Assembly: GCF_000010625.1 (NCBI RefSeq) | Contig: NC_010296.1 | Span: 4,560,001-4,592,000, forward strand | DNA length: 32,000 nucleotides | Reading direction: 5' to 3' | Source of the DNA: Microcystis aeruginosa NIES-843 | GTDB taxonomy: Bacteria; Cyanobacteriota; Cyanobacteriia; Cyanobacteriales; Microcystaceae | Part shown: positions 16,286-18,579 of the stretch, one piece after another | How the letters are laid out: each line of letters begins with the position of its first letter | Numbering within the stretch: position 1 is the stretch's first letter | Translations under genes and position numbers: made by a program | The notes under the pieces: model-generated | Told to the model about the DNA's origin: nothing | Seen by the model: the letters and a program-made list of their open reading frames with translations, nothing else | Databases searched by the model: none

Positions 16286-16301
16286 AGATATAGCTTGTGG
16301 A
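16130..16301 (+). ncRNA. Putative omega-RNA (reRNA) of TnpB copy 1: scaffold spanning the tnpB 3' end and right end, plus about 16 nt of flanking guide
   Basis: I placed it by analogy with characterised TnpB systems, where the RNA overlaps the tnpB 3' end and right end and the guide is the DNA just beyond the right-end boundary. Here that is agatatagcttgtgga. The 5' end is a guess. Confidence 0.3.
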
Positions 16302-16309
16302 GTTAAAAT

Positions 16310-17086
16310 ATGTCTAGTACACACACTGGTATTGAGTGGACTGATAAAACGTGGAATCCAACAACTGGGTGCGATAAAATTAGCACTGGCTGTCTGCATT
16401 GTTATGCCGAAGCTATTACACAGCGTTTTCCCAAGAACTTTCCCAATGGATTCAGCTTGACTTTGCATCCAGAAAGATTGGAAGAACCCTTACGTTGGCG
16501 CACTCCCAGTCGAGTTTTTGTCAACTCAATGAGTGACCTTTTTCATGATGATGTGCCTCTCGACTTTATCAGACAAGTTTTCTCAGTTATTCATTCAACA
16601 CCTTGGCATATATATCAGATTCTAACAAAGCGACAAAGCCGTTTAGGTGATTTAGCGTCTCAATTAGATTTTCCAGAAAACATTTGGCTAGGTGTATCTG
16701 TCGAGAACCAAAACCACATAGATCGGATTGAATATCTTCGGACAGTTCCTGTTTCAGTGCGTTTCATTTCATGTGAGCCACTTTTAGGACCACTAGAACT
16801 TAATTTAACTAGCATTGATTGGGTTATTGTCGGCGGAGAATCCGGGCAAAAACATCGCCAGATGAAACTTGACTGGGCAAGGGATATCCGCAATCAATGT
16901 CAAAATTCAGGGGTAGCATTTTTTTTCAAACAAGTTGGGGGAAGGACACCGAAAGCAGCAGGTAGATTACTTGATGATAAAATCTGGGACGAGATGCCTA
17001 ATGCCTGGAATCAGCATATCCAAACATGGGGAAGTGTCCCACTTAAATCGGCGAGGCGGTTAGAAAAATTAGAGCTTATTGCTTAA
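16310..17086 (+). CDS. DUF5131 / phage Gp37-Gp68 family protein (three-Cys motif, radical-SAM-like)
   Basis: The N-terminus [29 protein letters not shown] is the hallmark of this family and contains a CX6CX2C triad. There is also a VIVGGESG (GGE-type) motif. SD GGAG sits at 16299-16302. The ATG is only 24 bp from the IS right end. Confidence 0.85.
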   Translation: [258 protein letters not shown]

Positions 17087-18197
17087 CTGGAAATGTAACC
17101 TTTAAATCATCCGCAAACGTTCCTTTTCGCCGTTTTTTGTCCTCGGGTGAATGTACTGTGACTTTTCCTTGAGATTCAAGATTGCTAAGGGCAGTTTTGT
17201 AATTTTTTTTAATGTACGGTTTTCCCACATGATGCTGGTCGTAAATCTCTGCCATCGTCATAGTTTTACCTGAAAAATTGTCCAACAACATAGATTCCAG
17301 TTGATCAAGAGGACGGGTTAGCTCAAAGAGTAACGGTTGTTGAAGAGTTGCAGGATTATACTCAAAAGATGGTACGCCCTGCGTCTGTTCAGAACTCTCT
17401 TTAGCCATTATCTCTTTCATAATTTCATAGCCTTTAGGGTGCTTGCTTACAAAAATTAGGTGATGGCTAGTACGATTTCCCATTTCATGTCTGAAACGAA
17501 ATGGAAGAACATATTTACCACCCATTTCCAAGGCTTCACAGATATATTCTACAACGGTTAACTCACGCTCTTGTGGAGTAAGTGTTTTCAATCGTTTGCG
17601 GAGTTGATCTGCTCCTACTTGTCCGAATAGCGCATTCATGTTTTCTTTGACTGCATCATTATTTAAACCCATGTTGATGCGATTGTAATTGAAGAAGAAG
17701 ATGCAATCACAACCCCAATCTTTGACGACCGAATTAACAAGTTGAAGAGATAGCCCCTTGTAACCCCAAGGATCAACAAAAAGTAAAGTGGGAACTAATT
17801 TCATGCTTTGGAAGATTTTAACTATGTCCTCTCCCACCTCATATTTTGATATTTGAGGGCGGTATTTTAAATTTTCTATGCCCGGAATTGAATCTATAGC
17901 TTGTTGAAGAGAATTAACATTTTCGACATCGGCATCGTTAAAGATCGATACCAGCATATTTCGCATATCTGTATCGGCGATGGCAGTTTCTAGAACCTTT
18001 ACTGGGGTTGATTTTGAGCCATCTTTATATCGTCCTGCACCAGCAAAAAGGTCAACATAAGCGATTTTCTGGACTGAAGACGATCCCTTAACTTTTGAAA
18101 TTATAACTTTTGCCCAAGCCCAGAAATATTTCTCAACAATCCTAGCTTTGATCAAGGACTGTTCTTTTTGCTCATTGAAGAAGGAATTTTCAGTCAT
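17076..18197 (-). CDS. tcmP: TcmP (three-Cys-motif partner protein) family, with a methyltransferase-like N-terminal region
   Basis: It carries IAYVDLFAGAGRYKDG (MTase motif-I-like), LLFVDPWGYKG (DPPY-like) and a basic C-terminal tail (KKNYKTALSNLESQGKVTV...KKRRKG). Adjacency to a DUF5131 gene is the defining context of this family, by my recollection of TIGR04474. Confidence 0.75.
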   Translation of the reverse strand: MTENSFFNEQKEQSLIKARIVEKYFWAWAKVIISKVKGSSSVQKIAYVDLFAGAGRYKDGSKSTPVKVLETAIADTDMRNMLVSIFNDADVENVNSLQQAIDSIPGIENLKYRPQISKYEVGEDIVKIFQSMKLVPTLLFVDPWGYKGLSLQLVNSVVKDWGCDCIFFFNYNRINMGLNNDAVKENMNALFGQVGADQLRKRLKTLTPQERELTVVEYICEALEMGGKYVLPFRFRHEMGNRTSHHLIFVSKHPKGYEIMKEIMAKESSEQTQGVPSFEYNPATLQQPLLFELTRPLDQLESMLLDNFSGKTMTMAEIYDQHHVGKPYIKKNYKTALSNLESQGKVTVHSPEDKKRRKGTFADDLKVTFPVKQ

Positions 18198-18299
18198 AAG
18201 CTATATCAATAGTTACGATGCCGAAGGCTCTGGGTAGCGGCAAGTCGCTCTCGTCGGATGCGTTAATCAAACATAACATACCTTATTTTTGTTTGAATT

Positions 18300-18408
18300 A
18301 TACTAAATCCGTTGAGTATAGGCTACATATCAGGAGAGGCACTCATGCAAGAGGCACTCATGCAAAAGGGAGAATAAATAATCAGTTTTTAATAACCAGA
18401 TTTAGTAT
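18300..18408. mobile_element. MITE-like element, family 2 (109 bp, perfect 10-bp TIR)
   Basis: The TIR is atactaaatc (18300-18309) and gatttagtat (18399-18408). The core matches the reverse complement of 10426-10499. It has an internal perfect 15-bp tandem duplication, gaggcactcatgcaa x2 (18336-18365). Confidence 0.65.
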
Positions 18409-18579
18409 TAGAGAAGACAGGAGTTGACATCCTCACCGCCGTAAACGGACGGTGATTCCCAAACCTCACGATTTGAGTTTCTGCTTCTTTCCCGAAGGAT
18501 TTTTCGCACCTGCCTTAACAGATTTACTCTGTTCTGGTCTTATGGTCGCTCGACAGACTGACACCGCAAGCCCTGCGGC
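18408..18579 (-). ncRNA. Putative omega-RNA of TnpB copy 2 (guide = reverse complement of 18408-18423, ctcctgtcttctctaa)
   Basis: The reasoning is the same as for copy 1. The 5' end is a guess. Confidence 0.3.

Follow-up and report, generated by a model that had tools for sequence, protein, structure and literature searches.

Adjoining genes for a DUF5131 (Gp37/Gp68) protein and for TcmP, the three-Cys-motif partner protein, form a pair that is already named and that PADLOC has catalogued as PDC-M30. The PDCs are untested candidates found by their embedding in BREX, DISARM or type I restriction-modification (RM) loci (bioRxiv 10.1101/2024.01.29.577857), and no experimental report on PDC-M30 or PDC-M41 was found in the literature. 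Here we describe such a pair in a 32,000-nucleotide stretch of Microcystis aeruginosa NIES-843 (NC_010296.1, positions 4,560,001 to 4,592,000 of the forward strand), called the window below and numbered from its first nucleotide. The TcmP protein of the window matched PDC-M30A (E 5.6e-30), and the product of the adjacent DUF5131 gene matched PDC-M30B (E 2.6e-102). The PDC-M41A/B models also matched the two proteins, and the E values of DUF5131 against PDC-M41B and PDC-M30B ranged from 1e-102 to 1e-104. PDC-M30 consists of the same two genes, A being TcmP-like and B being DUF5131, and its type I RM embedding was found again at other loci. The window copy lies outside any defence system, and its two genes converge; those of the embedded copies examined are co-directional. 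The original prediction for this stretch had proposed a modification or anti-phage role for the pair. The idea is not new, since PADLOC already lists the pair under PDC-M30 and PDC-M41, and the window copy is an ordinary member. We did not find described the convergent overlap of the gene tails in cyanobacteria and Gordonia phages, the conservation across phyla, or a phage module of methyltransferase and DUF5131. The segment is an intact, resident and selectively maintained two-gene module and not cargo of the flanking insertion sequences (IS). In our judgement there is about an even chance that the pair is a DNA-directed radical S-adenosylmethionine (SAM) modification or conflict module.

Other described systems resemble one or both proteins. 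Spore photoproduct lyase (SPL, SplB), a radical SAM enzyme of DNA repair, gives the best solved fold for the DUF5131 model and acts on nucleic acid, and in RadicalSAM.org DUF5131 is Megacluster-5-2, beside SPL in 5-3 (PMC9477430). SPL differs in its CX3CX2C motif, in its length of approximately 340 aa and in acting alone with no TcmP partner, and no match to it was found at the sequence level. In phage M6, gp53 is an SPL-like radical SAM isomerase that rearranges a thymidine adduct in DNA after replication (PMC8989533). The gene for gp53 stands beside those of other base-modifying enzymes, a parallel to the place of DUF5131 beside genes of methyltransferases or methyltransferase-like proteins. 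By description gp53 belongs to another family (CTVGCAFC, a CX3CX2C motif), and its partners are a kinase, a pyridoxal phosphate (PLP) enzyme and a glycinyl transferase, with neither TcmP nor a methyltransferase among them. A further relative is the mobile pair of TIGR04471 and TIGR04470. Homology of DUF5131 to TIGR04471, 'radical SAM mobile pair protein A', is detectable (E 1e-20), and the neighbours of a Halopiger TcmP match pair protein B below its cut-off. With a score of 74 bits against an equivalog cut-off of 355, the window DUF5131 protein is a homologue of TIGR04471 and not a member.

The family assignments of the original prediction were borne out for both genes. The DUF5131 product scored 322 bits with PF07505 (gathering cut-off 28.9, E 3.5e-96), the match running over profile positions 2-243 of 243. 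The TcmP product scored 228 bits with TIGR04474 (cut-off 53, E 1.4e-67), its residues 12-267 aligning with profile positions 1-262 of 263. The C-terminus of TcmP matched PF22560, GMT-wHTH (E 4.7e-23, residues 279-351); the 'GMT' of this name was considered as the Vibrio Gamma-Mobile-Trio system, and it is not that system. Profile searches of the pair proteins also matched PHROG 2045. The nearest database proteins of both open reading frames (ORFs) are 97-99% identical and come from M. aeruginosa and its relatives. Membership of TcmP requires an adjoining PF07505 protein, and in the window the two genes overlap by 11 bp (Table 1).

The two genes are inherited as a unit. A scan of one genome per species gave at least 573 confirmed TcmP relatives, of which the 80 best loci were studied more closely. 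Their identity is 58-97%, and they come from Cyanobacteria, Acidobacteriota, Chloroflexota, Planctomycetota, Desulfobacterota and Nitrospirota, among others. Among these best 80, DUF5131 directly adjoins TcmP at all 78 loci with room for a neighbour, in agreement with the co-occurrence that had been predicted. The arrangement is convergent at 38 of the 78, TcmP-then-DUF5131 at 34 and DUF5131-then-TcmP at six. Nearly all convergent loci are cyanobacterial; their overlap is -11 in 27 of 38 and -8, -14, -20, -23 or +7 in the rest. The pair is divergent on a Mycolicibacterium plasmid and co-directional on a Hymenobacter plasmid. No recurrent third gene was found in the surroundings of 80 loci, where only lineage-specific synteny and spurious antisense ORFs were seen. 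Over 74 loci the pairwise identities of DUF5131 and TcmP are correlated (r 0.78, Mantel 0/999). Between cyanobacterial genera the protein identity is 76-80%, with dS above 1 and dN/dS of 0.08-0.14; this identity therefore reflects long-term constraint and not recent transfer. These data show obligate pairing, co-inheritance and purifying selection of DUF5131 and TcmP.

Some variants of the pair are worth recording. One of the six DUF5131-then-TcmP loci, L083 (L numbers denote the loci scanned), has a single 662-aa ORF at 9923-11911 (+) that contains a TcmP domain at residues 33-287 and a DUF5131-type domain at residues 413-615. The source is a long-read metagenome-assembled genome, in which read-through or sequencing error is possible, and the ORF is either a natural fusion or such an error. 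On a Halopiger plasmid (L008, 5320-9110), TcmP adjoins two 'radical SAM protein' genes and not DUF5131. These genes match PA0069/Rv2578c-family and mobile-pair-B models well below the cut-offs. The locus suggests that radical SAM enzymes of this branch have TcmP as a general partner. In the window, no Rfam families were found in 14500-20000, and a promoter scan gave the chance level (12 found against 10.9 expected). Terminator-like sites were modestly above chance (nine against 4.2 expected, standard deviation 2.4). A terminator-like hairpin with a T-run lies at 17177-17199 (+), approximately 90 nt past the DUF5131 stop and inside the 3' coding part of TcmP. Judged as a consensus match, this hairpin could end the DUF5131 transcript after antisense overlap with TcmP.

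The sequence and predicted structure of DUF5131 point to the radical SAM superfamily. The CX6CX2C triad that had been noticed in the window protein (C21, C28 and C31) does not vary among 34 cyanobacterial homologues, and its conservation is at least 90% among 31 homologues from across the phyla; its spacing differs from the canonical CX3CX2C of radical SAM enzymes. In the AlphaFold2 (AF2) model, which has a mean confidence score (pLDDT) of 80 and alternating strands and helices, the triad lies on a loop between the first, short predicted strand, at 13-15, and a helix at 32-39. VIVGGESG had been likened to the GGE motif that contacts SAM. GGESG is indeed invariant, but its position makes the equation doubtful. 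In the radical SAM topology the GGE-type SAM-binding motif ends core strand beta2. In our model the strand that comes next after the Cys loop, at 68-71, is followed by an invariant NSMSD and not by GGE, and GGESG comes later, where a strand predicted at 171-174 ends. GGESG is therefore probably not the canonical beta2 motif. In a fold search of the model against the PDB, the top six matches were all SPL (best E 2e-3, probability 0.98-0.99), followed by SuiB, LIAS and plain TIM barrels. After members of its own family, radical SAM proteins dominated the matches among viral structures in BFVD. Sequence searches of the PDB with both proteins and their family profiles gave no usable match. By its modelled fold, DUF5131 appears to be a non-canonical enzyme of the radical SAM superfamily, with a partial barrel that comes closest to the DNA-acting SPL branch.

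TcmP combines a conserved methyltransferase-like pattern with a winged helix. In a set of 53 representatives with 38-57% identity to the TcmP of the window, K17, D49, G53, G55, N87, P136, D142, P143 and G145 are invariant, and the PF22560 winged helix is present in all 53. DLFxGxG precedes DPxGY by 93 residues. The order and spacing of DxFxGxG and DPxGY resemble those of class I SAM-dependent amino-methyltransferases (RsmD, RlmJ and the DNA N6/N4 methylases), but at motif IV TcmP has DPWGY where these have (D/N)PP(Y/F/W), and not DPPY. The strands and helices predicted for TcmP alternate up to a final beta hairpin, a pattern compatible with a methyltransferase, and annotators of Gordonia phages have labelled TcmP 'methyltransferase'. 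The idea that TcmP is a methyltransferase is unproven and draws on this motif pattern, its order and spacing, the strand-helix pattern and the label of the phage annotators. The motifs that the original prediction had singled out, DLFAGAGRY and FVDPWGY, are present and conserved, but profile and fold searches did not demonstrate a methyltransferase.

DUF5131 also occurs in phages, and there it is repeatedly coupled to DNA methyltransferases. Matches to DUF5131 occur in 180 phage genome records, for the most part in operons of early replication and recombination and after DNA methyltransferases. In five phages whose DUF5131 has no TcmP partner, a DNA methyltransferase gene precedes it within one early operon, with two to four small genes in between (Table 1). 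The methylases of Che9c (gp65) and of the Rhodobacter phage RcapNL (gene 39) are homologous large C5-cytosine enzymes (E 4e-25), and the RcapNL case is independent of the actinophage cases. In phage phi1026b, gp43 was considered as a further methyltransferase and rejected because it is not detectable as one.

Several settings of the complete pair are those of genetic conflict. At L062 the gene order, on one strand, is HsdM, HsdS, DUF7380/DUF4209, a 274-aa ORF, TcmP, DUF5131 and HsdR, and at L043 it is SIR2, HerA, TcmP, DUF5131 and HsdR. At L057 a ResIII helicase is on one side of the pair and an N6/N4 DNA methylase on the other, and at L066 a primase-helicase of a TOTE system adjoins it. Such an RM or conflict setting was seen at four of 25 non-cyanobacterial loci scanned, and the remaining loci were housekeeping or generic. 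A rough estimate, made with no formal test, is that a random gene would stand this close to type I RM genes in well under 1% of cases. The other passengers of the type I RM slot are DUF7380/DUF4209 and the 274-aa ORF at L062 (7056-9857) and SIR2 and HerA at L043 (4998-9428). Pairs on plasmids adjoin toxin-antitoxin, integrase and IS genes. In Sinorhizobium meliloti, the TcmP gene SMa2243 adjoins the Hna defence gene (PMC12445080). In the Gordonia prophages ThankyouJordi and BaxterFox, TcmP stands between the immunity repressor and the integrase, directly downstream of the repressor, and DUF5131 is convergent on the other strand (overlap -4 in ThankyouJordi). In related phages, lysogens express the genes that are cotranscribed with the repressor, and such genes can serve in defence (PMC6426606). 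The defence of Gordonia phage CarolAnn was considered as a case of this pair and rejected; it is RexAB-like and served only as a precedent for repressor-linked lysogenic expression. The BaxterFox annotation can be amended. The DUF5131 gene at L092, 4001-4726 (+), is unannotated in GenBank (PDC-M41B, E 3e-110), where two small ORFs of the opposite strand (genes 40 and 41) are given at its position, and the 'hypothetical' gp42 is TcmP (175 bits).

From this evidence we infer a DNA substrate, complex formation, a radical chemistry and a defence role for the pair. DUF5131 and TcmP would act as a complex on DNA. TcmP would bind nucleic acid through its winged helix and through a methyltransferase-type pocket for SAM or for a base, and it would present the base or first methylate it. 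DUF5131 would then transform that base with a 5'-deoxyadenosyl radical derived from the presumed [4Fe-4S] cluster and SAM. The pair would most likely serve in conflicts with phages and other mobile DNA, whether by marking self, by modification or by an action like restriction, and the cyanobacterial module would now be a stably inherited chromosomal locus. Given the precedent of phage M6 gp53, a methyltransferase or methyltransferase-type protein that cooperates with DUF5131 in modifying a DNA base makes the most coherent picture. This proposal can be taken further. DUF5131 might be a second and far more widespread radical SAM family that modifies DNA bases in situ, acting on a base that a methyltransferase or methyltransferase-type partner has methylated or flipped. 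The partner would be TcmP in cells and prophages or a C5-cytosine methylase in lytic phages, and the product would be a DNA hypermodification not described before, for distinction of self from non-self. In this in situ hypermodification, the convergent tail overlap of cyanobacteria would add antisense control of the two subunits. We offer this extension tentatively and consider it unlikely as it stands.

Several observations weigh against a DNA-directed modification or conflict module. The structure prediction that had been suggested as a check served for DUF5131 but not for TcmP. The AF2 model of TcmP, built from a shallow alignment of 78-98% identity, has a pLDDT of 55; only the C-terminal winged helix is confident, and the fold matches are winged-helix proteins only. 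The 53 TcmP members gave no consistent Pfam or NCBIfam match to methyltransferase families at E <= 1 and no PDB match to them. In profile alignments with hhalign, TcmP scored 25.5 with RlmJ, 20.7 with RsmD and 16.3 with RsmJ, and scores with 28 unrelated Escherichia coli proteins reached 33.7; an RlmJ family alignment was also tried. We rejected these scores as evidence for a relation to methyltransferases because unrelated controls score equally. The SPL match of DUF5131 is weak in absolute terms (TM approximately 0.37, identity 10-11%). Among nine contexts of stand-alone phage DUF5131 that were examined, four have no annotated methyltransferase nearby, and the actinophage modules may share one mosaic origin and so may not be independent of each other. 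The identity across phyla, 58-66%, is unusually high for a defence gene. As had been predicted, neither a function of the pair nor an experiment on any of its members was found in the searchable literature. Cyanobacterial loci have housekeeping neighbours (IleRS, NdhD, ThrB, GltX and the ribosomal operon) whose synteny is of clade level, and a scan near 13 of these loci gave TnpB and generic or candidate PADLOC matches but neither restriction nor effector genes. The window agrees with this, the neighbours of the pair being a 313-aa protein without a Pfam match and a geranylgeranyl reductase. The cyanobacterial loci do not look like a defence island. Housekeeping neighbours and high conservation fit a housekeeping repair or modification function at least as well.

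The pair might then serve in SPL-like lesion repair, TcmP recognising or flipping a damaged base and DUF5131 reversing the lesion by radical chemistry, and it would be kept in stress-exposed bacteria. The nearest solved fold, the partnership of TcmP with PA0069/Rv2578c-like radical SAM genes, the strong purifying selection with very high conservation and the syntenic cyanobacterial neighbourhood without a linked effector all agree with such a role. So do the carriers labelled Deinococcales, Rubrobacteraceae and soil Acidobacteriota, but strict anaerobes (Syntrophales and Desulfobacteria) carry the pair as well. Also against a repair enzyme are the recurrence of the pair inside type I RM operons and other loci of conflict, the plasmid copies beside toxin-antitoxin, integrase and IS genes, the prophage position at the repressor-integrase junction and the coupling of phage DUF5131 to DNA methyltransferases. 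We regard housekeeping repair as unlikely but not negligible.

Phages may instead be the source of the function. The module would modify the DNA of its carrier to escape restriction, and the cellular copies would be domesticated or prophage remnants. This agrees with the 180 phage records, with the place of DUF5131 in early operons after DNA methyltransferases, with the PHROG 2045 matches and with M6 gp53, whose hypermodification is anti-restriction (PMC8989533). No prophage genes were found near the window locus and 38 cyanobacterial loci, however, and embedding in host RM operons suggests a use on the host side. The Gordonia position downstream of the repressor suggests lysogenic and not lytic expression, as judged from PMC6426606. 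Counter-defence of this kind seems quite unlikely as the primary role.

A role in RNA was suggested by the resemblance of DxFxGxG...DPxGY to the motifs of rRNA and tRNA amino-methyltransferases. TcmP would be a methyltransferase-like adaptor of the rRNA/tRNA type, and the pair would install or process a modified nucleoside in stable RNA. YVDLFAGAGRY of TcmP is locally similar to YLDTHAGAGRY of RlmJ, and both TcmP motifs align in register with RsmD, but neither similarity is above background. High conservation and cyanobacterial neighbours that include aminoacyl-tRNA synthetase and ribosomal genes would suit a function in translation, whereas the patchy distribution across phyla and the link to mobile elements would not. 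Moreover, the methyltransferase partners in phages are DNA C5-methylases, and the SPL-type radical SAM branch has so far been DNA-directed (PMC8989533). We consider an RNA substrate very unlikely.

The original prediction had also described the segment as a compositionally foreign 2.1-kb cassette bracketed by IS and miniature inverted-repeat transposable elements (MITEs). The bracket is there: two 1.3-kb arms, inverted and 96% complementary, enclose exactly the pair with 2138 nt between them (16286-18423), and a MITE-like repeat lies to the left of the left IS. Many metagenome contigs that bear the pair have a length of only approximately 2.2-2.8 kb, and this points to flanking repeats at either end in many populations. 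The flanking elements (IS200_TnpB 406 bits, guided_TnpB 380 bits) resemble the tnpB-only family of IS200/IS605, which inserts beside a tetranucleotide, and they are neighbours and not parts of the module. In Microcystis NIES-87 this locus also holds the pair, beside the same gene for the 313-aa protein, but neither IS is present, and the sequence is continuous across both insertion points. Each IS copy is inserted 3' of TCAT (left end), the two on opposite strands. Together with the empty sites of NIES-87, this indicates two independent simple insertions and not a composite element. IS200/IS605 transposition needs left and right ends on the same strand, which inverted copies do not provide. 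The composition is not clearly foreign. GC is 0.40 in the pair segment and 0.43 in the window, and the GC content at third codon positions (GC3) of the pair, 0.34, is like that of the Dcm and tnpB genes and inside the window range of 0.30-0.58 for 23 long ORFs, seven other ORFs being at or below 0.36. Mobilisation of the pair as a composite transposon is all but ruled out by the pair of NIES-87 and other strains at the same locus with uninterrupted empty IS sites, by the TCAT insertions of elements that carry tnpB only, by the ordinary GC3 and by the long residence seen in dS above 1 between genera and conserved synteny. The pair is a resident chromosomal locus of Microcystis and the IS insertions are secondary. 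Of the mobile modification or anti-phage system that had been proposed, the mobile cassette fails, and a role in modification or defence remains the most reasonable reading.

The insertions may still affect the pair. The left IS ends 24 bp ahead of the DUF5131 ATG and replaces a 248-bp upstream region found in NIES-87, and both tnpB genes read inward, toward the adjoining gene of the pair. As the native upstream region is replaced, DUF5131 expression in NIES-843 may depend on read-through from tnpB. Elsewhere in the window, MITE-like copies at 10650-10866 (-) and 11939-12161 (+), approximately 85% identical, flank paralogous 336-aa ORFs at 9387-10397 and 10925-11935. A Dcm-type ORF at 2255-3247 (+), with DLFCGLGG, and its neighbour at 3361-4011 (-) have the lowest GC3 in the window, 0.30. 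The Dcm-type ORF is 13 kb from the pair and is not linked to it in other strains examined, and together with its neighbour it may form an RM-like locus of its own or an orphan methylase locus.

Table 1. Features of the DUF5131-TcmP pair and its flanks in the window, and phage modules of methyltransferase and DUF5131 (by gene number)
Feature	Position	Strand	Remarks
DUF5131 (Gp37/Gp68) gene	16310..17086	+	258 aa, intact ORF, PF07505
Cys triad codons, C21-x6-C28-x2-C31	16370..16402	+	presumed [4Fe-4S] ligands
GGESG, residues 175-179	16832..16846	+	invariant in cyanobacterial and cross-phylum alignments
TcmP gene (three-Cys-motif partner protein)	17076..18197	-	373 aa, intact ORF, TIGR04474
Convergent 3'-end overlap, DUF5131/TcmP	17076..17086	both strands	11 bp, includes both stop codons
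TcmP C-terminal winged-helix domain, residues 279-351, then basic tail	17145..17363	-	PF22560
TcmP core domain, residues 12-267	17397..18164	-	TIGR04474 extent, methyltransferase-like motif pattern
DPWGY, residues 142-146	17760..17774	-	motif-IV-like; D142, P143, G145 invariant; Y146 at least 90%
DLFAGAG, residues 49-55	18033..18053	-	motif-I-like; D49, G53, G55 invariant
IS200/IS605-type element, tnpB only	14965..16285	+	tnpB 15056-16243; TnpB hidden Markov models (HMMs), inverted-repeat arm
Second, inverted IS copy	18424..19744	-	tnpB 18466-19653; TnpB HMMs; 226 bp upstream of TcmP
MITE-like repeat, approximately 210 bp	14549..14756		left of left IS; missing from NIES-87 allele
Methyltransferase-DUF5131 module, Che9c (L093)	gp65-gp68
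Methyltransferase-DUF5131 module, Sbash (L097)	gp66-gp69
Methyltransferase-DUF5131 module, Rhodobacter phage RcapNL (L096)	genes 39-36
Methyltransferase-DUF5131 module, Bunnybear (L100)	gp57-gp60
Methyltransferase-DUF5131 module, Phayonce (L101)	gp54/58-gp62

Our study places the DUF5131-TcmP pair among the larger radical-SAM-type systems without a known substrate (3056 TcmP clusters at 50% identity with E <= 1e-3, and 180 phage records), and it narrows the question to three testable claims: that the substrate is DNA, that the pair is coupled to a methyltransferase and that its mechanism is SPL-like. Should the pair act on DNA, it would bring a new chemistry to DNA modification, restriction or repair, and it would also explain the recurrence of the pair as a passenger of type I RM operons and of prophage immunity regions. 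In Microcystis, a bloom-former under heavy phage pressure, the pair would then be a conserved and chromosomally fixed element of genome defence or maintenance.

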